IMG/VR virus record: IMGVR_UViG_2917398303_000004
Location: 1 to 40,414 of that record
Length of the DNA stretch: 40,414 nucleotides
Strand: one strand, 5' to 3'
Origin: a virus
Taxonomy: Duplodnaviria; Heunggongvirae; Uroviricota; Caudoviricetes
Part shown: positions 17,724-34,653 of the stretch, one piece after another
How the letters are laid out: every line of letters starts with the position of its first letter
Numbering within the stretch: position 1 is the first letter of the stretch
The notes under the pieces: model-generated
Databases searched by the model: none
Seen by the model: the letters and a program-made list of their open reading frames with translations, nothing else
Told to the model about the DNA's origin: nothing
Program-made: the position numbers and the translations under genes

Positions 17724-17996
17724 TTATATAAAAAAAACCTGGTAATCTTTCTTCTTCGCTTCAGGATTAAGTGCCATTAGCGAAACGGCATTAAACAGGG
17801 CCATAAGGGGGTCAATTTTCCCCTTTCCGCTGGCCTGTTTGGTGATGAGGATAGCGTTACCTTTTGGCTCTACTCTGGCGTTGCCTACACACCAGGCCAT
17901 TAATGGCTGTCCACCATGAATAAGCACCTCCCTCTGCAAGCTTGCGCTCTGTTGTCTTAATCGCACCACCAAGTCTCCAGCCCTGGCTGACACCAA
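17724..17996 (-). CDS. Terminase large subunit C-terminal fragment (alternative frame)
   Basis: HGGQPLMAWCVGNARVEPKGNAIL...GKIDPLMA resembles terminase large subunit C-termini. Confidence 0.5.
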   Translation of the reverse strand: MVSARAGDLVVRLRQQSASLQREVLIHGGQPLMAWCVGNARVEPKGNAILITKQASGKGKIDPLMALFNAVSLMALNPEAKKKDYQVFFI

Positions 17997-19383
17997 CCAC
18001 TGAATCTTCAGGTATTTCAGCTTCTACAAGAGCATCAAGAATCTGACCGACACCAGAAGGGTCAATGCCAATTTTATCCAGCAGTTCCGCATCATTAATA
18101 CGGCTGACATATTCAGCGACTTCCTCCGTGTCCTGTCCTACTCGTTTTACGATAGTGAGGTCACCGGCCTTAACGAAATCGTTGAACCTGGATTCCTCGC
18201 TTTTGCGGCGGCGCACAGCTATTTCATGCGCCCAGGCATGGCCCCAGCCAATCCACTCACGGGTTTCTTTGTCACGACCAATAATGTAAAGACCAAGAAG
18301 GTCATCAAGGCCACCACCATCTATCCCAACCGTAGCAACCTCAGCTCTCTGAAGGATATCGCTGAATGTTACCTGCCTAATTTGCGGCTCCCAGAAATCA
18401 ACGCCTGCCCATCGGTCACTGCGGAGGTTCAGACCAATTTCGATATTGAGGTGTTTCGCAAGGAACTGCTGTAATGTGCCGTCTGTTTTGTTCTGGTTCT
18501 TCAGAAGCTGATCGGCAATCCATTCTTCACTTACCGAACGTCCAATATTTGGATTGGTGATGTAGAAATTTTTTGGTTCAAGGTAAGCCTTACTTTCCAC
18601 CATAGAGTCAGGGAATTCATACAGGACGCCGAGTGTTTTAAGGTCATTAATCTTTCCATCTCGCACAGCACGCCAGTAATCAAGGCGTTCTTTGAATACA
18701 CCAGCAGGTGGTTCATCACTTTGTGTAGTCAGGAATATAACCCAGCCTTCGTTGCGAGATACCTGACCACCAAGTGCTTCCATAAACATGGCTTCGGCAT
18801 TAGCTCGCTTGCCAAACAACCAAAGCTCATCAACCAGAATGCGCCCTGACTTTTTACCTGAAACAGTATCGGTGTCAGCTGCTACTACTTTGAGTGTATT
18901 TCGCGTTACTCGGTGTGTGATGGTGCGGATATGGTCCTGAATCTGGAACATATCAGACAGCTCATCATCGGCGCGTATCATCCCGGCAGCAGGTTTAAAA
19001 CTGTTATCTGCAACCTCTTTTGTCGGCGCGAGAATCAGGTGCTCTTCATCTTCACGCCAGCACAGGATTAGCGCGGTCAGCATAATCCCTGCAGCGATGG
19101 TCGATTTTGTGTTCTTTTTCGAGATAAGTAGTCCATATTCGCGGATTAACTGCTTACCAGTCTCTGCTTCATAGCCACCGAAGATGGCATTTACAAAGTC
19201 AAATACCCATTCCTCTGAGCACTCACCAAATGTTGGCTTCCCTGGTAAATCAGAGACGCGTAACTCTTTGAAGATTCCAAGTGCCTGTTCTGCCTGGTCT
19301 GGGAAAATTGGTGGTGGGATGATTGATTGCTTTGCAACCAGAAGAGATTCCCATTCAGGGCAAGCCGTGGTCCATTGAGCCAT
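17857..19383 (-). CDS. Terminase large subunit (frame-disrupted near its 3' end)
   Basis: ATPase and nuclease-like regions; C-terminal terminase sequence continues in ORF 17724-17996 in another frame. Confidence 0.8.
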   Translation of the reverse strand: MAQWTTACPEWESLLVAKQSIIPPPIFPDQAEQALGIFKELRVSDLPGKPTFGECSEEWVFDFVNAIFGGYEAETGKQLIREYGLLISKKNTKSTIAAGIMLTALILCWREDEEHLILAPTKEVADNSFKPAAGMIRADDELSDMFQIQDHIRTITHRVTRNTLKVVAADTDTVSGKKSGRILVDELWLFGKRANAEAMFMEALGGQVSRNEGWVIFLTTQSDEPPAGVFKERLDYWRAVRDGKINDLKTLGVLYEFPDSMVESKAYLEPKNFYITNPNIGRSVSEEWIADQLLKNQNKTDGTLQQFLAKHLNIEIGLNLRSDRWAGVDFWEPQIRQVTFSDILQRAEVATVGIDGGGLDDLLGLYIIGRDKETREWIGWGHAWAHEIAVRRRKSEESRFNDFVKAGDLTIVKRVGQDTEEVAEYVSRINDAELLDKIGIDPSGVGQILDALVEAEIPEDSVVGVSQGWRLGGAIKTTERKLAEGGAYSWWTAINGLVCRQRQSRAKR

Positions 19384-19386
19384 TGA

Positions 19387-19923
19387 TTACCCCTTGTTAT
19401 TAACAACAAGTTTCGGCGGTGCCATTGCCCCAAACTTGCTACCCGTAGCTGCGACCTTCGCGGCGGCATGTCTCGCATCCTTTTTACCGCCTTCTCCTTT
19501 TTTGGGGTGAAGGTATGGCAGCATTGCTTTTGCGGCGTCTTTTCTGACATCTGTCTCTTCTGATACGTCGTTCATCACTGCTTTCAGGAACTCAAGCGGA
19601 TCATCAAATTCCTTCACCGTTCTGTTAACAACTTTTGGCAGTTCATCTGGTTCAGAAACAGCCTGCTCGACAATGACTTCGGCCCCACGTTTTTTACTGA
19701 TAAACGCGATGATATCCGGGTCTTTTGCCAGCCGGGAACCCTGAGACCTCGCGGTTTTCTCGGAGTAACCGGCCTTTCGGGCTGCTTCAGCCTGGGATGA
19801 ACCGGACATCAGCGCTTGTGCGAATTTGCGCTTTTGTCCTGTTAACACGTCAACATCCTCCAAAGGGGAAAATTTTCTGCGCATGAGAGGGGGCGCGGTG
19901 TCCAGCGCGATCGGCGTTGACAC
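19387..19923 (-). CDS. Terminase small subunit
   Basis: 178-aa ORF with helix-turn-helix-like AEAARKAGYSEKTA segment, immediately upstream of terminase large subunit. Confidence 0.7.
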   Translation of the reverse strand: MSTPIALDTAPPLMRRKFSPLEDVDVLTGQKRKFAQALMSGSSQAEAARKAGYSEKTARSQGSRLAKDPDIIAFISKKRGAEVIVEQAVSEPDELPKVVNRTVKEFDDPLEFLKAVMNDVSEETDVRKDAAKAMLPYLHPKKGEGGKKDARHAAAKVAATGSKFGAMAPPKLVVNNKG

Positions 19924-19949
19924 CCACTGATACCCCCCCGGGTGTTTGG

Positions 19950-20318
19950 TCAGAGAATTACGATGCCAGATTGTGATTTATCTTTCGGCACAGAGTGCTT
20001 CAGAGCCTCACCATCAGGCTGGTTCATTGATGCTTCGCGCGATGACTTACCTGAGTGACACTCAATGCACAGAGTCCACAGGTTGCGCTCATCGTTGTCA
20101 CCACCGAACTGTAGAGCTATGCGGTGATCAAGCTCGCTGTCATGAAGGTCAACTACTCGCTTACACATACAGCAGTGACCACCGTCACGAACATAAATAC
20201 GCCGCTTTAGGCTTACCCTTGCGCTACCACTCACACGGCGATGCTCACCATAAACAGGCTTTATTCGGCGTGTGTCGATAGCCTTTAGGCGCGGTTGTAG
20301 TGTCTTTAGCTTAGACAT
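19950..20318 (-). CDS. HNH endonuclease (terminase-associated)
   Basis: CxxC...DH...N...CxxCH motif; GGAGG Shine-Dalgarno 5 nt upstream of ATG at 20318; adjacent to terminase small subunit as in HK97-like phages. Confidence 0.75.
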   Translation of the reverse strand: MSKLKTLQPRLKAIDTRRIKPVYGEHRRVSGSARVSLKRRIYVRDGGHCCMCKRVVDLHDSELDHRIALQFGGDNDERNLWTLCIECHSGKSSREASMNQPDGEALKHSVPKDKSQSGIVIL

Positions 20319-20904
20319 GTAACCTCCATGCTCTACGTCTTTCTGTTCTTGGCTGATTGTCTCTGGCTGGTTCCACTGGCTGTCCGTCAGCGTGGTCAAC
20401 GAGCGAATAGCATGGATAGACAACAGGACCACCGTAAGCATCGCCTACTGCATAGTCTGCTGCTTTGCCGTGATTCCATTTATCCAGAACTCGCTTGATA
20501 TGCTGATGCGGTACGCTGTAGCAGACGCCATGGATCAGGCGTGGAAGTGTGATGTAATCCGTTCTGCTCTTATCTGCTGCGATTAGCTTTGATGCTATAT
20601 CGAGTTGATATTGTGGAGGACGACCAGTACCGAGATAGAAAGAAACCAGCGCATCAGGGAAGCGCTCAATCCACTCAGCGAGTTTGTTGGTGAACCCATC
20701 AACTGGAATTGCATCGTCTTCTAAAATGACCACTCGGCAAGACTGCTCTTCTGCCCATTCAAGAGCACGGCGGTGATTCCAGTTAGCACCGTTATCTCCC
20801 GTGTCGATAAGCAGTAATGCACCTATCGACTCTGCCAGAATTAATGCTTTTTTGTGGCGCAAATGGTGACCAACAACCACAAACTTTACTTGTGCCTCCA
20901 CCAT
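20311..20904 (-). CDS. Hypothetical protein, possible GT-A-like nucleotide-sugar transferase
   Basis: 197 aa; beta-strand/helix start KFVVVGHH and acidic VVILEDD segment suggest a DxD-type fold; overlaps both neighbours. Confidence 0.4.
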   Translation of the reverse strand: MVEAQVKFVVVGHHLRHKKALILAESIGALLLIDTGDNGANWNHRRALEWAEEQSCRVVILEDDAIPVDGFTNKLAEWIERFPDALVSFYLGTGRPPQYQLDIASKLIAADKSRTDYITLPRLIHGVCYSVPHQHIKRVLDKWNHGKAADYAVGDAYGGPVVYPCYSLVDHADGQPVEPARDNQPRTERRRAWRLHV

Positions 20905-22343
20905 GCCAACTCCTTGCCAACGCCTTCAGACTTGAAGATGGTATGAACCTTCGGCCCGGTAATAACCTTGTTGCCAAATGACTTTGCCACCATGCAAAAT
21001 GCACCCATATCAACTTTCGTTTCTGGAGCTTTCTCAATCTTCCAGAAGCGATGGCTTTCAATCAGATAATGCTGACGGATGATACGATGCGCGAACTCCA
21101 TAACGTCTTCACGGCTACCACCTAACAGGCCAGCATTAAGCAGTGGTTCATCGCGATGCTGCTCGATGAAATCGCTATACGCCTTGCCGTGGTGATTAGC
21201 TTTCATCCATTCGTCAGCATACGTCTTGTGCTCTGAGCCAACGTAAATTTTACCCGACTTCATTTCTTCCCATGGCTCTCGCAACATTTCAACGTCAGTA
21301 CCATCAGTGCACCAGACAAGGTGATACTCAGGGTGCGCACGTAGAAACTGATAGATGTGAAGCCAGCGGGCAAAGTATGGGCTCATGTCCACCAGCGGGA
21401 CTTCCCCCAAGCCAGCACCAGTTGGCGATTCTTTTAATTCGTCAGCCAGGACGATCGGTAATGCGCCGGATATTGAGTCAGCCCATGATTGCAAAACCTG
21501 CGGGTCGGGTTTCATCTTCCCGCCGCGCTGTGGGTCTGGCTGGCTTGTGAGTAGCGTCGTAATCACCAGATTTGGGTTTCTGCTGTACGAGGCAAAGCCT
21601 GTATAACCGCTGTCGCGTCGCGTGTTGAAGATGCCAACGTTTCTTTTTACCAGCGCCTCTCGGTCAGGTCGTGGAATTGAGCGCGTGCCCTCTTCGTTCT
21701 CATCCATTGAATGAATCAGTTTTTCAGAGCCGGCCACATCAGCGAACGCCCAGGTCGATAACCCGGCATTGTGAATGCGTAGCGCCAGATCGGGATGCTC
21801 ATACATGCCGCGACCATAAACCGGATCGAAACCGCCAACCTTCACGATCGCGCTGCGGTGGTAATACAACATCACACCGCGTTGTCCGGTGTAAGCGATA
21901 TGCTTATCATCCCGGTACAGCACAGCCATATCATTAAGCTTTCTCGGCCCAGCAAGATCGAGAAACTGGTAAGCCAGGTGCGGCTCGGGGGATTCGATGT
22001 AGGGAAGATGCCAGTTATCAGCGATGGGCCATGCATCATCATCCCATAGGAAGAAATGCTCGCACCCCGCGTCCATAAGTGCTGAAAGGCTGGCGTTCTT
22101 TGATGCAACTATTCCGAGAGATGTTTTATGACGTAGCAACTTCACACCTTCTGGAACTACAGCAGCATGGTTTGAGCCATCATCGATAACAACCACCAGC
22201 GCACCAGATGGAAGATGCTTCATGTGCTGCTCAATAGAGCGTTTAAGCACTTCAGGACGGTTATGGGTTGTTATTGCGATGCCAATTCGCGATGAGTTGG
22301 TGCATTCTGGTACAAAACGCACACCCCCTATTAAGACTTCCAT
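20886..22343 (-). CDS. Family-2 glycosyltransferase domain protein with approx 250-aa C-terminal domain of unknown function
   Basis: N-terminal IGIAITTHNRPEVL...VVVIDDGS...FFLWDDDAWP matches GT2 signature incl. DxD; no TM segments seen. Confidence 0.65.
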   Translation of the reverse strand: MEVLIGGVRFVPECTNSSRIGIAITTHNRPEVLKRSIEQHMKHLPSGALVVVIDDGSNHAAVVPEGVKLLRHKTSLGIVASKNASLSALMDAGCEHFFLWDDDAWPIADNWHLPYIESPEPHLAYQFLDLAGPRKLNDMAVLYRDDKHIAYTGQRGVMLYYHRSAIVKVGGFDPVYGRGMYEHPDLALRIHNAGLSTWAFADVAGSEKLIHSMDENEEGTRSIPRPDREALVKRNVGIFNTRRDSGYTGFASYSRNPNLVITTLLTSQPDPQRGGKMKPDPQVLQSWADSISGALPIVLADELKESPTGAGLGEVPLVDMSPYFARWLHIYQFLRAHPEYHLVWCTDGTDVEMLREPWEEMKSGKIYVGSEHKTYADEWMKANHHGKAYSDFIEQHRDEPLLNAGLLGGSREDVMEFAHRIIRQHYLIESHRFWKIEKAPETKVDMGAFCMVAKSFGNKVITGPKVHTIFKSEGVGKELAWWRHK

Positions 22344-22666
22344 ACACCACCATCAGCAAGATTACGCGTTGCAAGAAAGTCGTTCACCGCACCCCGTAAC
22401 TCTTCTACCTGTTCAACGGTTAATGGCTCACGTGGATGGATCACAAGATGGATCGCGGTAGGTGCGAGAGGGTTATCCAAATTAATGCGCGGTTGGTTTT
22501 CTGAGTGCTCATTACTAAGGTTAAATGTCGCGATAACCTTCGGTATGGCGTTCGGTTCAGTTTCTAATACTGTTGAAGCCTGTCCATCAAGAAGAACACC
22601 ACCTACGGCTATTCCATATCCGAAGAAACGATTACCACGATACAATTTTGCGAGCTGATATTTCAT
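22331..22666 (-). CDS. Hypothetical protein (first gene of glycosyltransferase operon)
   Basis: 111-aa ORF with AAGGA Shine-Dalgarno; 13-nt overlap with downstream GT gene. Confidence 0.5.
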   Translation of the reverse strand: MKYQLAKLYRGNRFFGYGIAVGGVLLDGQASTVLETEPNAIPKVIATFNLSNEHSENQPRINLDNPLAPTAIHLVIHPREPLTVEQVEELRGAVNDFLATRNLADGGVWKS

Positions 22667-22792
22667 GTGCGTTTCCTTTTAGACGTGAGCCTGTCGCACG
22701 GTAACGCCGCCCGAGAGGTAAACGCAACCTAACGGCATTACCCAGGCTCACTACTGAAAGACTCTCTTTGATGTGCGCGTGCGATGCGCATT

Positions 22793-22819
22793 AAAAAAGC
22801 CCCGCTATTGCGAGGCTAT
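22793..22819 (-). terminator. Rho-independent terminator, copy 2 of a 27-bp perfect repeat
   Basis: AAAAAAGCCCCGCTATTGCGAGGCTAT on + strand; hairpin plus T6 on minus strand; identical to 24161-24187. Confidence 0.55.
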
Positions 22820-22836
22820 TTGTTAAGGGGACTTGC

Positions 22837-23091
22837 TTAGTTAATGCTTAAAATTTCCACAGCTTGTCTTATTTGCCTTGAATCTAGGTCTTCAATATCA
22901 GTAGCCACCAAATAGAAGGATGATTCGCCAGTAAGGGATGTAACGTTAGCTGTAATAATCTCTAATTCAACCTCAGTATCATCGGAAAGCATCCAGTTGA
23001 TAGAGCTAAGTCCATCACCTACGTTGATAACCTCAGGTTTTTTACCCTTAAGAATTAAAATGACACTTTTCATATAATTTCTCTGTTCCAT
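22837..23091 (-). CDS. Hypothetical protein (AT-rich)
   Basis: 84-aa ORF inside repeat-bounded cassette. Confidence 0.45.
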   Translation of the reverse strand: MEQRNYMKSVILILKGKKPEVINVGDGLSSINWMLSDDTEVELEIITANVTSLTGESSFYLVATDIEDLDSRQIRQAVEILSIN

Positions 23092-23141
23092 GACACTTCA
23101 AAACATTATCACAGGCACTCATTAAATGCCTGCTGTAATGC

Positions 23142-23375
23142 TTAATCGTCGAGTTGAAGAACGCCGTGTTCCTCTGACTCTGAGTAGGCGATTAAACCTT
23201 CATATGCCGGAACAATTTCGCCACTTTCTGATTCAAACTCAGGGATGGTTGAGCGGGCGATGGTATAGAAAGGCTGGCCTTCCTGCTCTGCAAATTCTGC
23301 AAGGGATTTGATCTGCTCTGCTGTCAGAACTAATGCTGTCATTGCTTTATCCTTTAGAGGGTATATCGATTGCAT
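23142..23375 (-). CDS. Hypothetical acidic protein
   Basis: 77-aa ORF inside repeat-bounded cassette. Confidence 0.45.
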   Translation of the reverse strand: MQSIYPLKDKAMTALVLTAEQIKSLAEFAEQEGQPFYTIARSTIPEFESESGEIVPAYEGLIAYSESEEHGVLQLDD

Positions 23376-23437
23376 TATCCGCTTACGGGGATAATCATTA
23401 TCAAGCCCACCAGCAGATGAGCTTTGTAATGGTCAAA

Positions 23438-24004
23438 TCAGGTGCGGGTTAATTTGCCTTTTCCCGTGTCAGCCAGCCAGAATTCAATCAGTACATTGGC
23501 CTCATCGACCAGAGTTTTGATTTTCGATACATGGGCAGCCTTCACTCCCTTCCACTCATTCAGTCCAGTGCCAAAAAGGCTGGCAATCCCTTTATCGCGC
23601 TTCATGTCCATGCACGCCTGATTGAGTTCTTGCATCACGCTGGACTTGCGGGGATTAACCGCGACACCTTTCGTCCAGTATTCATAGAGTACGTCGTCGC
23701 ATTCATCCTGATACTGGATCACCTTATCGCGGATTTCTGGATTTACTTTGTTGGGGCTGATGGTTTGGAGCCAGCCAGCAAGTTTACGCAGGGGTAGACA
23801 GACCATTTTTCGTGTTTTGCCATCGTCTGCAACCATAGGGATTTCCTCTACAGTTGAGCTAAAGCGTTTTCTTAACTTCGTTAGCTGCCCCATCCAGTCC
23901 ATTCCCATACCCTTAACAATGGGCTTCATCGGGGTATAAGGTTCACCATTATGGTTAACAACATAGAGTGCGCTGCCGTGGAACGGCACGGTAATGGTAT
24001 TCAT
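23438..24004 (-). CDS. Antirepressor-like protein (P22 Ant N-terminal domain type)
   Basis: ITVPFHG...NGEPY...CLPLRKLAGWLQTI...QYQDECDDVLYEYW resembles P22 antirepressor N-domain; AAGG Shine-Dalgarno upstream of ATG at 24004. Confidence 0.55.
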   Translation of the reverse strand: MNTITVPFHGSALYVVNHNGEPYTPMKPIVKGMGMDWMGQLTKLRKRFSSTVEEIPMVADDGKTRKMVCLPLRKLAGWLQTISPNKVNPEIRDKVIQYQDECDDVLYEYWTKGVAVNPRKSSVMQELNQACMDMKRDKGIASLFGTGLNEWKGVKAAHVSKIKTLVDEANVLIEFWLADTGKGKLTRT

Positions 24005-24160
24005 TGCGTTTGCCTTACTTTGAAATGAACCTTCGCCGCAATAGAAATCAGCCCACCGAAGGCTCGCCAGCACTAACTGACTTCTTCGAAGGCTCATATC
24101 AAAGGGTTCGGATTCGGTGTGGTTAGTTGCGCATTGCGGTGCGCGGTGAAATGCAGTTAC

Positions 24161-24187
24161 AAAAAAGCCCCGCTATTGCGAGGCTAT
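24161..24187 (-). terminator. Rho-independent terminator, copy 1 of the 27-bp repeat, overlapping the o-spanin stop codon
   Basis: Same 27-mer as 22793-22819. Confidence 0.55.
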
Positions 24188-24400
24188 AGTTTCTTTCTGG
24201 CAGTTCGCCTGCCACGCTTTGTTATGCGCCAGAATGTCGCGCTTCGTCTGCTTATCCAGCACGTCGATATCGTTGTCGGTCAGATAGATAATTCTGGTCC
24301 ACAAACACCCGGTATCAACCACCACCGGGGCGGGTGAAGTTTTCGCGCAGCTCGCGATCAACATCGTCATCAGGCATATGGTTAACACTCTGCTGTACAT
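24173..24400 (-). CDS. o-spanin (Rz1-like outer-membrane lipoprotein)
   Basis: Signal peptide with LIASC lipobox, embedded in the +1 frame of the i-spanin gene. Confidence 0.6.
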   Translation of the reverse strand: MYSRVLTICLMTMLIASCAKTSPAPVVVDTGCLWTRIIYLTDNDIDVLDKQTKRDILAHNKAWQANCQKETIASQ

Positions 24401-24593
24401 TGCTGGCCTCTCTGGTGACTTCTGCCTGACGTTCCGCCACTGCAACCTTCGCCGCTGCGTTTTCTTCAGTGCGTTGTCGATCGGCTTTCGCTTCTGCTTT
24501 GCTGGTTCCGCTAATATGGCCAAGACCAAAACCACCGGCAGCGGCAACACAGATAGCACCAATAACACCGATGATGATTTCTACTATGCTCAT
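24315..24593 (-). CDS. i-spanin (Rz-like)
   Basis: N-terminal TM helix then charged coiled-coil; ATGA overlap with endolysin stop. Confidence 0.65.
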   Translation of the reverse strand: MSIVEIIIGVIGAICVAAAGGFGLGHISGTSKAEAKADRQRTEENAAAKVAVAERQAEVTREASNVQQSVNHMPDDDVDRELRENFTRPGGG

Positions 24594-25201
24594 GCAATCA
24601 CCGCTTTCGCTTTGGTGTAACGAACACACCTGTCGTTAATGCCGTTCTGACCGCCATTGATAATCTGAGTGATGCGCGCCAGGTCATCGGTGTACTTCAG
24701 ACAACCTTTGGAGACGTAGAACCATGCAGCAGAACGTGCAGCATTAATGTCTTTCTCCAGCAGTTCAGGGTTAGTAACCAGGTCAAGCTTCAGACCATTG
24801 CCGCAATCGCGGTAATTAGTGAGACCGGTAATCTGAATTAACCCGCGTCCACGGTATTTCCAGCCATAACCAGCAGCTTTGTTACCAAGACGGTTGCTGT
24901 ATACCAGGTTTGCGATAGCTTCCTGACTTGCTGGCTTACCGTTCGCACGCCCAAGCATTGATGCCTGATAGTTCGTTGCCCGGCGTCCAAACGTAGTCAG
25001 TAATGCAGCAGGCGTGTAGTTGAAGTTCTCCACCAGCGCAGAGAATCCCGCTGATTCATGGCCTGCCTGAGCAATGAACATCGCCTTATCTTTTGGCTCA
25101 GTGATGCCAAACTCTTTCATTGCATCCGTAATCGGCTGAAACCAGCGCGCAGCTAACCCGGCGCTAATAACAGCCGCCTGTTGAAATTGTGATTGGTTCA
25201 T
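24590..25201 (-). CDS. Endolysin, glycoside hydrolase family 19 (chitinase-like lysozyme)
   Basis: AQAGHESAGF and YRGRGLIQITG motifs of GH19 lysozymes. Confidence 0.85.
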   Translation of the reverse strand: MNQSQFQQAAVISAGLAARWFQPITDAMKEFGITEPKDKAMFIAQAGHESAGFSALVENFNYTPAALLTTFGRRATNYQASMLGRANGKPASQEAIANLVYSNRLGNKAAGYGWKYRGRGLIQITGLTNYRDCGNGLKLDLVTNPELLEKDINAARSAAWFYVSKGCLKYTDDLARITQIINGGQNGINDRCVRYTKAKAVIA

Positions 25202-25458
25202 TAGTGCCTCAGAGCATCAATAAGACGCGCCACGTTTCCCCGAGCCCAAAGCACGGCGGCGCATATCAGGATGTTAACGATGACCACCAGCCAGTGTGAT
25301 TCCAGGTATAGGCCGAACAGATAGCGGAACGGGATGCTGGCATAAACCAGCACCGTGAAATAAGCGAGAAGAGAAACTATCGGGCGATGTCAGGCACCGC
25401 CACGCTGGTAAAACATCAGAGTAAGAACGATGATCGCGCTAATGCCCGCATTGATCAT
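25201..25458 (-). pseudogene. Holin-like small membrane protein interrupted by in-frame TGA (25390-25392)
   Basis: Own translation: MINAGISAIIVLTLMFYQRGGA-stop-HRPIVSLLAYFTVLVYASIPFRYLFGLYLESHWLVVIVNILICAAVLWARGNVARLIDALRH; TAATG overlap with endolysin start. Confidence 0.35.
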
Positions 25459-25468
25459 CGCTGAAGGA

Positions 25469-25864
25469 TCACTTGTTACCATTGCCGGTCCCTCCACCAC
25501 GTAAACGCGAGAGAATTCCAAACAGGCTACCCAAATCCTGGCTGTTGACGAAAGTCAACAGCTTAATAGCAATTGCGGCAACGATTACCGCGCCCAGCGC
25601 ATCAAGTGGTCTGTCGCTATACCCCGTCCATTTGGAGAAGAAGGAGCCAAGCAGTGGCGCGCCAATAACGCCGAAGATGAATGAGGTGATGAAGTAGCCA
25701 GTCAGCTTAAGGCGGCTGATATTAACCGCCGTAGCGACGTAGAATACCGCGCCAGCGAATGCGCCAAACACAACACCATAATCAATACCGGTTGCGATAC
25801 CAAAAACACTGGCTCCCATAAGGCCACCAGCGGCAACCGTAGTGCCAGAAACAGGATCGGACAT
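25469..25864 (-). CDS. Multi-TM membrane protein, putative holin
   Basis: 131 aa, 3-4 predicted hydrophobic helices, first gene of lysis block. Confidence 0.45.
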   Translation of the reverse strand: MSDPVSGTTVAAGGLMGASVFGIATGIDYGVVFGAFAGAVFYVATAVNISRLKLTGYFITSFIFGVIGAPLLGSFFSKWTGYSDRPLDALGAVIVAAIAIKLLTFVNSQDLGSLFGILSRLRGGGTGNGNK

Positions 25865-25948
25865 TTAGCCCCCTCTTATTGCCGTGAGTCCTCTCAAAAC
25901 GAGGGGAATAAAAAAGGCCGCCTTCAGGCAGCCTTCTAGTGAAAATAA

Positions 25949-26626
25949 TTATTGTCTCAATTTAACTCGCTTCCATTCTGTTTTTAAGCATCTTTGACTC
26001 GATTTAATATATAGTTCTTTTAGTCTTCGGTATGCTTTTTCCACCTCTGAACCATCTACATAAAACATACGGATATCTTCGTTCTCGAACATAAAGATCA
26101 TGTTTTTCTGACACGTCAGTATAGCTTTTGATGTCCATTCATGGGGATTTAGCATTAGCTGTATATTGGTAGCCAACTCAAGTATACGATGCTCAGAATC
26201 AATCACCACATCAAAGTATTCGTCTGCTCTCTCATTCGTGCCATTGCCCCATTTAGCACCTTCTCTTTCAGCAGAGTGCATTCGACGAAAACGCTTATGC
26301 TTTTCACAGCTCATAATGAACTCTGAGCAGTAACTTCGAAGGGTATTAATCCATTGTTGTCTATTTGTAGACAACACCTGAGAATCAAAAGCCATTTCAG
26401 CTAAATGACGTTGATTATCTCTGTCTGTTGCGGCTAAATCATCATTCTTTTTGATTGTGTACCATGCCACAGCAGTTGGCAGTGCTGCACCTACAAAAGC
26501 AGCAAGTACAGATCCAAAAATGGTATCCCAACCAATTCCGGTATCAACAATAATCTCAGGTATTTTTGTAACTGCTAATCCAGCATCTACAGTGAAAAGT
26601 GGATAAGGTATCCCTTGCCAAGCCAT
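25949..26626 (-). CDS. Hypothetical membrane-anchored protein (AT-rich moron between Q/tR' and lysis genes)
   Basis: 225 aa, single N-terminal TM helix, low GC relative to flanks; no recognisable domain. Confidence 0.55.
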   Translation of the reverse strand: MAWQGIPYPLFTVDAGLAVTKIPEIIVDTGIGWDTIFGSVLAAFVGAALPTAVAWYTIKKNDDLAATDRDNQRHLAEMAFDSQVLSTNRQQWINTLRSYCSEFIMSCEKHKRFRRMHSAEREGAKWGNGTNERADEYFDVVIDSEHRILELATNIQLMLNPHEWTSKAILTCQKNMIFMFENEDIRMFYVDGSEVEKAYRRLKELYIKSSQRCLKTEWKRVKLRQ

Positions 26627-26661
26627 ATAACCCCCCTAAACATTTTGTGGGGGGATAATAG

Positions 26662-26684
26662 CAAAAAACCCGCACGTTGGCGGG
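26662..26684 (-). terminator. tR'-like rho-independent terminator downstream of Q (CCCGCCAACGTGCGGG + T6 on minus strand)
   Basis: 5-bp GC stem, 6-nt loop, T-run; about 50 nt downstream of candidate pR'. Confidence 0.6.
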
Positions 26685-26733
26685 TTCTTAATGTTTGTTG
26701 CTCTGTTCGCTTTTGCGTCCCGAGCGTAACATA

Positions 26734-27356: not shown

Positions 27357-28317
27357 GATCGATAAAACGAAATATCAGCTCAAGTTGTGAGCCGTATTTC
27401 TTCTCAAATGCCACGGTGTCATCATGAAGCTCCCGGTGATGCAGCCTGCACAACGGCAACACAAAGAGATCATGCGCTTTTGTACCCATTCCACCCTGAC
27501 CGTGGCCTATCAGGTGATGGGGGTCATCTGCCTGCTTGTTACAGCAGGCGCACGGCTGTGATTTAACCCAGCGCGTGTATTTCTCATTCTCCCAGCGACG
27601 GCGCTTAGGCCTGAGCATGAACGATTCCGGCGATTCATCATCAACCTTTATCGTCAGTACCTTTTTCGCCCTTTCCTGCAATACTTCTGTCGCTGCCGGA
27701 CGCGGAACAATGTCACTCTCCCGCATCACTGACTGATGCTCTTCTGGCTTCATTCCCATGGCTTTAGTAGCTATTCCTTCAGGGATGACATCAGCCAGGC
27801 CTCTTCGCACCATCCACCAGCAAAACTCAGGCAGGGTAAGCTGGTGGTCATCACTGAAGCCCAGCTCACGAAGCACTACAGATAAAATCCAGGATACCAG
27901 GTTTTCACGCGCTATGCCTGCCAGTCTTTCCGTGGTCTGATCACGTAATTGGTTATCACATGCCCAGCACAATCTGATTGAGCTTGGATGATGGCGAAAC
28001 AGCGTGAAATGCGGGCTGTGATAGTCGTTGTGGGGCCACTGACAGACGAATGAACACTCTAGCCACCTGTCCAGTGAGACAAGTCCACCAGCCCGCGCTA
28101 TCACCTTCTTGTTCTCAAACACGGCCTTCATCATTGGGTCTTCTGCCAGTGGTTGAGATGCCGGAGGGATTGCCCCTGTTGGGTATGTGGCGTAGTTCTC
28201 CGGCTCTTCTTCAATCAGTACGCGCCCACGTTTGAACAGGTACATCAGGTCAGGGCCGGGACGGAACAATACGATCCCCAGCCCGTTAGCAACTTCCGGC
28301 GTTAACAGTGCTCTCAC
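27328..28317 (-). CDS. DUF968-like protein with C-terminal His/Cys-rich (HNH-like) region
   Basis: C-terminal CACC...HHLIGHGQGG...LCRLHHRELH motif; common partner of Q in lambdoid prophages. Confidence 0.5.
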   Translation of the reverse strand: MRALLTPEVANGLGIVLFRPGPDLMYLFKRGRVLIEEEPENYATYPTGAIPPASQPLAEDPMMKAVFENKKVIARAGGLVSLDRWLECSFVCQWPHNDYHSPHFTLFRHHPSSIRLCWACDNQLRDQTTERLAGIARENLVSWILSVVLRELGFSDDHQLTLPEFCWWMVRRGLADVIPEGIATKAMGMKPEEHQSVMRESDIVPRPAATEVLQERAKKVLTIKVDDESPESFMLRPKRRRWENEKYTRWVKSQPCACCNKQADDPHHLIGHGQGGMGTKAHDLFVLPLCRLHHRELHDDTVAFEKKYGSQLELIFRFIDHALATGVLA

Positions 28318-28916
28318 GCTGCATGCCCCTTAGCAAGATATTCAACCCACAGGCCACCAATCCACTTCACCCCCTTTGCTGTGAATCGTGACTGGCTGAA
28401 GGCATAGTTTGATGCGTTCGTTGTTCCCGTCTTAACCTCAAAACGTCCCGCTTCAGTGTGTTGATGATACGGAGTCAGGACATTGTTAAGGCGGTACATG
28501 ATGTGACTATCAAGCAGGAAAAGACGGAACTCCGGCTCTTTAGCGTGGAGAAGCTTCGCCACCTGCCGGAACGTCATCGAACCAGTAGCAGTAACATAAC
28601 GGTCAACAAACTCTGCTTTCGGCGCGGCAACAGCCAGCTCTTCACTCAGGCGCTGTTTTTGCTCTTCCAGATCAGCAGCAAGCCGCAGAGCTTCAGAGAA
28701 GGATTGCGGAATTGCAGGCTTACTCTCCTGCTCCAGCTCAAGCCAGCGATCGATAATGCGCTTCCGAAGAATCACGTTATAGCCAGATACCAGCGTGAGG
28801 CATAAATCCTTAGGAAGATGGAAACATGGATAGGCTCTTCCCCTGTCATCCCGGTAATCTCCTAAGAACTCAGGAGATTGAATATTGAGCAAACTGAGCA
28901 TATTGGGCAATCTCAA
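28314..28916 (-). CDS. Rha-family regulatory protein with KilA-C-like C-terminal domain
   Basis: N-terminal YPCF...LVSGYNVILRKRIIDRWLELE and C-terminal FRQVAKLL...SNYAFSQSRF segments. Confidence 0.5.
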   Translation of the reverse strand: MRLPNMLSLLNIQSPEFLGDYRDDRGRAYPCFHLPKDLCLTLVSGYNVILRKRIIDRWLELEQESKPAIPQSFSEALRLAADLEEQKQRLSEELAVAAPKAEFVDRYVTATGSMTFRQVAKLLHAKEPEFRLFLLDSHIMYRLNNVLTPYHQHTEAGRFEVKTGTTNASNYAFSQSRFTAKGVKWIGGLWVEYLAKGHAA

Positions 28917-34372: not shown

Positions 34373-34496
34373 TGTGTTGTAGCTCAATAGGTAGAGCGCC
34401 TCCTGAAGGAGGAGTTGAGCACTAACCAAGGATCATAACCCAGTTATCTCATGCGGCTGGCCAGACGTTATCCGGGTTCGAGTCCCGGCAGCACAA
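34373..34496 (+). ncRNA. tRNA-like element with canonical acceptor, D-arm and T-arm but an aberrant 74-nt central region
   Basis: Acceptor TGTGTTG/CAGCACA, D-arm GCTC-AATAGGTA-GAGC, T-arm CCGGG-TTCGAGT-CCCGG; no canonical anticodon arm could be folded by eye. Confidence 0.4.
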
Positions 34497-34574: not shown

Positions 34575-34653
34575 GCGGCATTAGCTCAGTTGGATAGAGC
34601 AACGGCCTTCTAAGCCGTGTGGGTCGCAGGTTCGAATCCTGCATGCTGCACCA
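34575..34653 (+). tRNA. tRNA-Arg (anticodon UCU) with encoded CCA
   Basis: Hand-folded cloverleaf: 7-bp acceptor, D-arm, anticodon stem ACGGC/GCCGT with loop CTTCTAA, 7-nt variable loop, T-arm GCAGG-TTCGAAT-CCTGC; resembles argU-type tRNA. Confidence 0.8.

Follow-up and report, generated by a model that had tools for sequence, protein, structure and literature searches.

We analyzed a stretch of 40,414 nucleotides (hereafter the window; positions 1 to 40,414 of IMG/VR virus record IMGVR_UViG_2917398303_000004, a virus of the Caudoviricetes), and in particular a 27-nucleotide sequence, AAAAAAGCCCCGCTATTGCGAGGCTAT, that occurs twice between the lysis and packaging genes. The genes of this region are all on the minus strand. 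The order of transcription is holin, endolysin, i-spanin, o-spanin, copy 2 of the 27-mer, an Ant-like gene, genes for products of 66 and 78 amino acids (aa), and copy 1 of the 27-mer, followed by a gene for a 111-aa product, two glycosyltransferase-like genes, an HNH endonuclease gene, and the small terminase gene. An earlier note on this DNA, made from the sequence alone, had viewed the two 27-mers as a duplicated terminator bounding a single inserted cassette. We found that each copy of the 27-mer is directly followed by a diverged copy of a structured mRNA leader of 130-160 nucleotides (nt), which the earlier note had missed.

The 27-mer is predicted to be an intrinsic (Rho-independent) terminator on the strand of the genes. 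An exact-match search placed it at 22793-22819 and 24161-24187 (as read on the plus strand), exactly two occurrences in the window, and a separate repeat search of the window returned the same pair. No further match with up to three mismatches was present in the window, and none was expected by chance (100 shuffles). The identity of the two flanks ended exactly at the edges of the 27-mer. On the minus strand, each copy reads AGCCUCGCAAUAGCGGGGCU followed by U6, and folds into an 8-bp stem (six G-C pairs and one U-G pair) with a 4-nt loop ahead of the U-run. The predicted hairpin energy was -14.1 and -14.5 kcal/mol on the minus strand, compared to -11.3 kcal/mol on the plus strand, where the U-G pair becomes a C-A mismatch. 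Both copies are at the 3' end of a gene and in the same orientation as that gene. Copy 2 encodes the last codons of o-spanin (IASQ) and its stop codon (TAG, 24173-24175), which lies within the hairpin loop, and copy 1 starts 18 nt past the stop codon of the 78-aa gene. The earlier note was therefore right about the two identical 27-mers, about the overlap of copy 2 with the o-spanin stop codon, and, given the hairpin, the U6 and a U-G pair on the minus strand only, about a terminator. The positions are:

24161-24187, minus strand: 27-mer copy 2, terminator T (hairpin 24166-24185, U-run 24161-24166)
22793-22819, minus strand: 27-mer copy 1, terminator T (hairpin 22798-22817, U-run 22793-22798)

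The leaders that follow the two terminators share a fold. The two flanks look unrelated in the window, but alignment shows them to be diverged members of one family, and nhmmer found exactly two full leader copies in the window (22817-22665, E = 1.9e-40, and 24185-24003, E = 2.9e-24). Minimum free energy (MFE) folds of 40 diverse homologs, made one by one, had a common architecture of a hairpin (P2; 5 bp with a 6-8-nt loop), a linker, and a long irregular hairpin (P3), the latter composed of P3a (7 bp), P3b (9 bp), and P3c (12 bp) with a conserved 6-7-nt bulge on its 3' side between P3b and P3c. There are also two predicted pseudoknots: PK1 joins the P2 loop to the bulge on the 3' side of P3, and in PK2 the linker that precedes P3 pairs with the 3' portion of the P3 apical loop. 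The Shine-Dalgarno (SD) sequence is part of the 3' strand of P3a (CUAAAAGGA in copy 1), and the start codon is 5-13 nt past P3. In the MFE folds, the SD was at least 75% paired in 60 of the 71 evaluable leaders. Both leaders in the window keep this fixed place immediately ahead of a start codon; the SD is within a helix in copy 1 and next to P3 in copy 2. Their parts are:

22664-22792, minus strand: leader copy 1 (ATG 22664-22666; covariance model score 152.7 bits; MFE -47.7 kcal/mol, z -3.2)
22774-22790, minus strand: P2 hairpin of copy 1
22779-22784 with 22694-22699, minus strand: PK1 of copy 1 (UCGCAC/GUGCGA)
22762-22767 with 22713-22717, minus strand: PK2 of copy 1 (AGAGAG/CUCUC)
22754-22761 with 22674-22682, minus strand: P3a of copy 1, the latter strand holding the SD AAGGA
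22743-22751 with 22685-22693, minus strand: P3b of copy 1
22731-22742 with 22700-22711, minus strand: P3c of copy 1
24002-24160, minus strand: leader copy 2, an Ant-type variant (ATG 24002-24004; 25.5 bits with covariance model R1, E = 0.004)
24128-24145, minus strand: P2 hairpin of copy 2
24018-24104, minus strand: long hairpin P3 of copy 2
24133-24139 with 24036-24042, minus strand: PK1 of copy 2 (CCGCAAU/AUUGCGG)
24113-24119 with 24054-24060, minus strand: PK2 of copy 2 (CACCGAA/UUCGGUG)
24013-24017, minus strand: SD of copy 2 (UAAGG), immediately 3' of P3

A leader peptide was considered for copy 1, where an AUG at the start of P2 opens a reading frame of 17 codons. It was rejected; the frame is absent in variants with an 18-nt insertion.

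The fold of the leader is supported by covariation. We built a covariance model (R1) from six type-A leaders, with the terminator excluded and the model ending at the ATG. It found 110 leader copies in the window and 99 loci, copy 2 of the window among them. In the alignment of these copies, which was fitted to the model, the nested pairs were formed in 94.3% of cells, compared to 79% in shuffles and ~42% with slid partners. Compensatory change was seen in 31 of 33 nested pairs, with 372 double-change cells versus 80 in shuffles. PK1, which is outside the model, was paired in 96.6% of cells, and all six of its pairs covaried, with 12 distinct fully complementary variants. For PK2, the best helix with its own partner had a mean of 5.9 bp, in contrast to 4.45 +/- 0.09 bp with permuted partners (200 permutations, maximum 4.71), and there were ~30 different helix variants. 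Because U-G pairs are frequent, the structure can be assigned to the mRNA sense strand. Based on these comparisons, it is well supported that the leader is a conserved structured RNA, built from 33 nested pairs together with two pseudoknots that covary.

We considered whether the stretch after the terminator might instead act as DNA, as a promoter, an operator, or a host-factor site (e.g., for IHF) for transcription of the next gene. It is the only conserved non-coding DNA upstream of rha, and, as summarized in PMC4936722, rha of phi80 and P22 has been reported to be regulated by IHF and to be harmful to the phage in IHF-deficient hosts. However, the covariation preserves pairs and not sequence, including the two long-range pseudoknots, and the G-U pairs that are used would be A-C mismatches on the other strand. 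There was no IHF consensus (WATCAANNNNTTR) in either leader of the window or in the leaders of phi80, HK620, and HK639, so any link to IHF would be indirect. A consensus scan of the minus strand for sigma-70-like promoters in 24160-24005 and 22792-22667 found none. A role as a DNA site thus appears quite improbable.

The unpaired parts of the leader are little conserved. Apart from the start codon, only one unpaired position was at least 90% conserved. A riboswitch or a ribozyme is not supported: the core of invariant unpaired nucleotides is absent, and unpaired bases that vary this much argue against a core that binds a ligand or catalyzes a reaction. A fold this elaborate, with so few of its unpaired bases conserved, suggests that its shape is recognized or that it is simply a very stable lock. 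Rfam 15, searched at gathering and permissive thresholds, had no match to the leader in the window, phi80, HK620, or HK639, and the only hits were weak ones to Phe_leader and RsmY on the terminator itself (E = 0.57-3.7). A full-text search of a limited library of the literature gave no description of the leader. The genome papers of epsilon34 and phage L (PMC8022706) do not mention it, nor does the main text of the 2017 motif survey by Weinberg. The leader is apparently undescribed so far.

The leader is present in classical phages, in front of a recurrent set of genes. By blastn, the element was found in 86 deposited phage genomes, and the match covered 80% or more of the element in 66 of these; the hosts of the matched phages include Escherichia, Salmonella, Klebsiella, Enterobacter, Cronobacter, and Citrobacter. 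The covariance model detected it twice in phi80 (before rha and before a gene similar to N15 gp59), and also in HK639 before rha, in HK620 before hkbK (KilA-N + ORF11CD3), in mEp390 before its glycosyltransferase gene, and twice in CharmingMan. At the homologous place, the records of phi80 and HK639 carry an annotation for the terminator and none for the leader. Of the 110 copies ascertained through the terminator, 59 precede one sequence cluster whose tested members are Rha (Phage_pRha), KilA-N + ORF11CD3, and KilA-N + P63C; 21 precede a family of unknown function that itself precedes a glycosyltransferase; and the rest precede ANT/KilAC, Bro-N, HNH, the 485-aa glycosyltransferase, the 111-aa family, and singletons. 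The Ant of the window (P22_AR_N + ORF11CD3) clusters alone among these downstream genes. A second sample, ascertained through the leader sequence GTGCGACAGGCTCAC, comprised at least 120 contigs, and among those listed the family of unknown function followed in 59 of 98, a glycosyltransferase in 10, and the 111-aa family in 9.

The deposited start of rha lies inside P3, 36 nt upstream of the SD-proximal ATG, in both phi80 (locus L230, 2632 versus 2668) and HK639 (locus L232, 2627 versus 2663). The 172- and 174-aa products made from the downstream ATG keep the whole Phage_pRha domain, and the annotated rha start codons of the two phages are probably wrong.

The terminator and the leader are frequent neighbors. 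We scanned for a 22-nt core of the 27-mer and found it in at least 120 IMG/VR viral contigs and at 95 genome loci. Among the 120 viral sites listed, there were 49 distinct clusters of upstream flanks, and the leader followed the core at 71. Conversely, a terminator-like hairpin was before roughly two-thirds to three-quarters of the 79 distinct leader contexts listed in the second sample, compared to ~1% of random 48-mers; this fraction was obtained by folding and is approximate, a first simple detector having under-called it. The hairpins before the leaders were diverse, with at least 13 loop variants of a GCCUCGC/GCGGGGC stem plus several unrelated stems. In the prophage of Escherichia coli PCP07014, the same leader, 111-aa gene, and glycosyltransferase gene are behind a different terminator and a different upstream cassette. 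Judging from these sequences, many temperate phages of Enterobacteriaceae share this terminator, and the 27-mer appears to be one of its common alleles. Leaders without a terminator and terminator sites without a leader indicate that the two are separable and do not make up an obligate unit.

The exact core was also present at 86 genome loci without the leader (within L124-L218), a striking number for a 22-mer with a wobble pair. These loci belong to Flavobacterium, Colwellia, Shewanella, Christiangramia, Cryomorpha, and other distant taxa, and only ~28-33 nt match. Horizontal transfer of the 22-mer to other phyla was rejected; the flanks are unrelated and no leader follows, and we treated these loci as convergent terminators for that reason. 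Such loci would favor the view that the two copies in the window, too, are unrelated terminators made alike by constraint (a GC hairpin and a U-run), with no common ancestry and no role in recombination. That view is nonetheless very hard to sustain, as homologous leaders follow both copies in the window, the core is embedded in alignable flanks within enterobacterial phages, and chance alone would give no match in the window.

The 1.37 kb between the two terminators contains, as the earlier note had stated, the Ant-like gene and two small open reading frames. The genes and the junctions between them are:

24173-24364, minus strand: o-spanin gene (63 aa as called; phrog_1275), its 3' end inside terminator copy 2
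23438-24004, minus strand: Ant-like gene (called as 188 aa; P22_AR_N + ORF11CD3; phrog_524, anti-repressor Ant)
23392-23435, minus strand: junction J2, a conserved hairpin and then GAUAAUG
23142-23342, minus strand: 66-aa gene (phrog_9518), an independently assorting module
23100-23150, minus strand: junction J1, a conserved hairpin (GCAGGCAUUUAAUGAGUGCCUGU) and then GAUAAUG
22837-23073, minus strand: 78-aa gene (84 aa from an upstream ATG), no family
22331-22666, minus strand: 111-aa gene (phrog_10235), the first gene after leader copy 1

We tested whether this 1.37 kb behaves as one moron that was inserted at the spanin terminator, duplicating it, and that can be excised or swapped as a whole through the direct repeats. 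We compared positions 19001-26700 of the window by BLAST with the loci that bear the core (given L-numbers here) and inspected the flanks. Eight loci have a single terminator joining the 3' end of the spanin gene to a homolog of window 22667-22792 (L071, L039, L059, L081, L023, L006, L007, and L038). These are the empty sites that the earlier note had proposed to look for. Other loci have different cassettes between two copies of the terminator (665 bp apart in L075/L027, 1091 bp in L092, and 411 bp in L057/L102/L177). In addition, a perfect match of 27 bp is close to the shortest length on which RecA-dependent recombination can act, and is more than enough for phage recombinases.

The genes between the two terminators, however, assort independently, each with its own conserved junction. 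In L075/L027, the 78-aa gene with its terminator is alone between the two terminator copies. Homologs of the 66-aa gene are directly after the spanin terminator, again alone, in mEp390, L035, L194, and L168. The terminator together with the 156 nt upstream of ant is found after many unrelated genes (L010, L089, L040, L129, L088, L068, L042, L126, and L112). The junctions recur in the same manner: copies of J2 (90-100% identical) are in many unrelated loci and copies of J1 (88-97% identical) in many loci. J2 also has a Fur-box-like sequence, GATAATGATTATC, and an inverted repeat, ATTATCC-N8-GGATAAT. A Fur box was considered, phi80 having a small gene nearby that is annotated as 'Fur-regulated', and was dropped because the protein of that gene is unrelated to the 66-aa product.

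The closest relatives of the window lack the Ant module and have the others. A megablast search with 22200-24800 against phage and complete E. coli collections gave only fragments and no near relative. Exact protein matches led to the source prophage itself (GCA_004745285.1, contig PDIB01000034.1) and to three close relatives, GCA_965183505.1, GCA_025527135.1, and SRR21096725 (L223/L227, L224/L228, and L229). The relatives are 99.8% identical to the window over 17835-23431 (J2, the 66-aa and 78-aa genes, copy 1 of the terminator, and the 111-aa gene). The identity stops sharply at 23431/23432, seven bases beyond the ant stop codon, and this exact breakpoint is in J2. In place of window 23432-24187 (copy 2, its leader, and ant), these relatives have 467 unrelated bp with a 62-aa gene. 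In L227 (4445-4911), this segment consists of ~225 nt of non-coding sequence, a variant terminator (GGCCUCGCUUAUGCGGGGCUUUU; the same stem with a UUAU loop), and the 62-aa gene without a leader. Homology resumes at 24188, at the edge of the 27-mer, and is only 88% there and in the lysis genes; the o-spanin of the relatives ends in KLEIK*, versus TIASQ* in the window. The sharp break in identity and the 88% beyond it place the two terminator copies in blocks of different recent ancestry, and the pair was therefore not made by one insertion.

Based on these results, a single inserted moron seems improbable. The closest relatives lack Ant and copy 2 while matching the window at 99.8% across copy 1 and the genes for the 66-aa and 78-aa products, no promoter-like site for an autonomous unit was seen, and no deletion product of this lineage was found. 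The 1.37 kb is, by comparison of these loci, best described as three independently assorting modules: the terminator, leader, and ant; J2 and the 66-aa gene; and J1, the 78-aa gene, and the terminator. The duplicated terminator by itself is a case of the mosaicism that is usual in lambdoid phages, with a shared terminator where modules meet. The cassette model of the earlier note is largely wrong: neither the 1.37 kb as one inserted piece nor the duplicated terminator as the footprint of its insertion is upheld. The finding that the note had named as contrary to its model, related phages with the same three genes and no repeat, was obtained for the 66-aa and 78-aa genes (with one copy of the repeat) and not for Ant. 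What survives is the general idea of module exchange at joints that are marked by conserved regulatory sequences. As for the label of moron, presence/absence variation is concentrated between the lysis and packaging genes, with genes present in some close relatives and absent in others (the empty sites, and the replacement of the Ant module by the 62-aa gene), and there is a terminator downstream (copy 1, after the 78-aa gene). The gain and loss is not of a single unit, and with no promoter-like site found between the terminator and the next start codon, the classic moron layout of own promoter plus terminator is not seen.

We believe it likely, on these comparisons, that a shared terminator and a pseudoknotted leader are at two module boundaries of the late operon, with three exchanged modules between them, and that the two copies came separately. 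The terminator and leader would most likely serve as a transcriptional insulator and a translational lock, and also as a patch of homology for module exchange. In this model, the terminator would stop RNA polymerase that lacks modification by the phage Q protein, for example in stray transcription in a lysogen, and Q-modified late transcription would pass through it. Read-through by Q of terminators is established for the late operons of lambdoid phages. The leader would then hold translation of the next gene low or conditional, and the gene gated in this way would usually be a regulator of the Rha, KilA-N, or Ant type or the first gene of a glycosyltransferase module. The two terminator copies would have arrived with different modules and not by duplication upon insertion. 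The mosaicism is at the level of modules, with breakpoints at conserved non-coding elements, and the shared terminator, leader, and junction sequences are likely to be the crossover points.

The leader might work in any of three ways. We put an even chance on a default-off dampener. It could also be a switch that is opened by a trans factor (RNase III, or a host or phage protein), which we regard as possible and somewhat doubtful, or, less probably still, an element for RNA processing or stability. A translational lock would fit the harm by Rha when its control fails in IHF-deficient hosts, as that harm is summarized in PMC4936722. We tentatively suggest, as a wider possibility that we would not yet expect to hold in full, that this is a new class of double-pseudoknotted leader that acts as a translational lock in lambdoid and P22-like phages, that is the missing cis element behind the harm linking rha and IHF, and that forms a portable cassette for module exchange. 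This reading names phi80, HK620, HK639, and mEp390 as users and rha, kilA, and ant-type genes and other accessory late genes as the locked genes. The leader sits in classical model phages right before rha, kilA-N, and ant-type genes, the regulation of which is poorly understood. If it is a lock or a switch, it would give a handle on how potentially self-harmful regulators are kept quiet in a very strongly transcribed late operon, and on why such genes travel as plug-in units.

Several results weigh against the reading of a terminator and lock at module joints. With respect to the pairing of the two elements, ~20-25% of the leaders listed had no clear upstream terminator, and 49 of the 120 viral terminator sites listed had no leader. 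With respect to the fold, the counts for nested pairs came from an alignment fitted to the model, a bias that does not touch PK1 and PK2. When run on a plain MAFFT alignment, RNAalifold retrieved just the terminator, P2, and a portion of P3, as indels had shifted the helices out of register, and we replaced this alignment with single-sequence folds and alignment to the covariance model. The SD of copy 2 just abuts P3 and is not within it, and the fold of copy 2 (-47.0 kcal/mol, z -1.7) is unexceptional compared to shuffles, with a modest covariance model score of 25.5 bits. With respect to exchange, no close relative had the product of a terminator-by-terminator exchange. The identity of the two copies runs 5 nt past the 22-nt core, the exact 22-mer allele was before only ~17 of the 120 leaders listed in the second sample, and some recombination or gene conversion within the terminator may have occurred.

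The remaining features of the region and the window are as follows:

25469-25864, minus strand: holin gene
24590-25201, minus strand: endolysin gene

The 267 bp between these two genes (25202-25468) have no called gene, the longest open reading frame being 50 aa. The homologous stretch in the closest relatives encodes a 93-aa second holin (Phage_holin_3_7), and 25202-25468 may be a disrupted holin gene. In HK639, an Rfam match to the STnc100 small RNA (L232, 64-269; 52.6 bits) is in the late-promoter leader region upstream of the holin genes. On the other side of the Ant module, 19950-22666 holds the 111-aa gene, a 485-aa GT2-like glycosyltransferase gene (20886-22343) whose start is overlapped by the 111-aa gene, a gene for a 197-aa 'glucosyltransferase' (phrog_854), and the HNH endonuclease gene, between the lysis and terminase genes. 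The same arrangement is in mEp390 and an E. coli prophage, and the structured leader heads the glycosyltransferase module in many phages. A second antirepressor-type gene (28314-28916, 200 aa, ANT/KilAC domain) is upstream of DUF968 and Q antiterminator genes, so the prophage has two Ant-like proteins in different operons. Rfam reported two tRNAs, at 34373-34496 and 34575-34653. ARAGORN confirmed only the latter, as tRNA-Arg(tct); the former hit spans 124 nt (45.9 bits) and may represent either a degraded tRNA or one that carries an insertion.

The terminators belong to a known kind. Intra-operon Rho-independent terminators of the late operons of lambdoid and P22-like phages are annotated after Rz/Rz1 in phi80, HK639, HK106, and epsilon34, and the phage L paper states that their roles are unknown (PMC8022706). 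Those described here are the same in having a hairpin and a U-run just past the lysis genes, in an operon read through by Q-type antitermination. They differ in that the annotations end at the hairpin and leave the leader that follows unremarked.

The modules resemble morons, a concept from Juhala and Hendrix that is reviewed in PMC3594210 and that includes the 'ant moron' of P22-like phages (PMC2629481). As with morons, accessory genes are variably present among relatives, between essential late modules, and are bounded by terminators. In contrast to morons, no promoter was detected here, a terminator and a translational leader open the unit, and there are three modules. The ant moron of P22 has another location, ahead of the tailspike gene, and is under the control of Arc, Mnt, and sar, which have no counterpart here: in a check for P22 immI-type control, the neighboring open reading frames had no Pfam match to Arc or Mnt and there was no Rfam hit.

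For genome evolution, the best analogy is the PeSL cassettes of T4-type phages, repeated regulatory cassettes with a terminator stem-loop in hyperplastic regions (Arbiol et al. 2010, PMC2839356), which have been proposed as recombination points for module shuffling and the excision of mini-circles (PMC2839356). In both cases, short repeated regulatory cassettes flank variable non-essential genes; here it is the terminator, the leader, J1, and J2 that recur at module boundaries. PeSLs have an early sigma-70 promoter and a stem-loop, whereas here there is a terminator and a pseudoknotted leader with no promoter. The phages here are temperate lambdoid phages, and their population pattern would agree with swaps and mini-circles through recombination between cassettes.

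Structured leaders that limit initiation of translation include the double pseudoknot of the E. coli alpha operon (bound by S4) and those of T4 gene 32, Mu com-mom, and lambda N (with RNase III). The leader described here is like the pseudoknotted translational operators in that the ribosome-binding site lies in or right next to a folded 5' leader, and it shares the double pseudoknot with the leader of the alpha operon. It differs in that there is no sequence or Rfam relationship, and in that the downstream proteins are diverse, which makes autoregulation by the gene product unlikely. Double-pseudoknot riboswitches and self-cleaving ribozymes are similar as well in size (~130 nt), in combining nested helices with two pseudoknots, and in lying immediately ahead of a coding region, but they have many invariant unpaired nucleotides in place of the single well-conserved position found here. 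To our knowledge, the topology of the leader matches no class of riboswitch or ribozyme. Taken as a whole, this appears to be a cis-regulatory mRNA leader joined to a shared terminator, both of known kinds, with the leader itself apparently undescribed.

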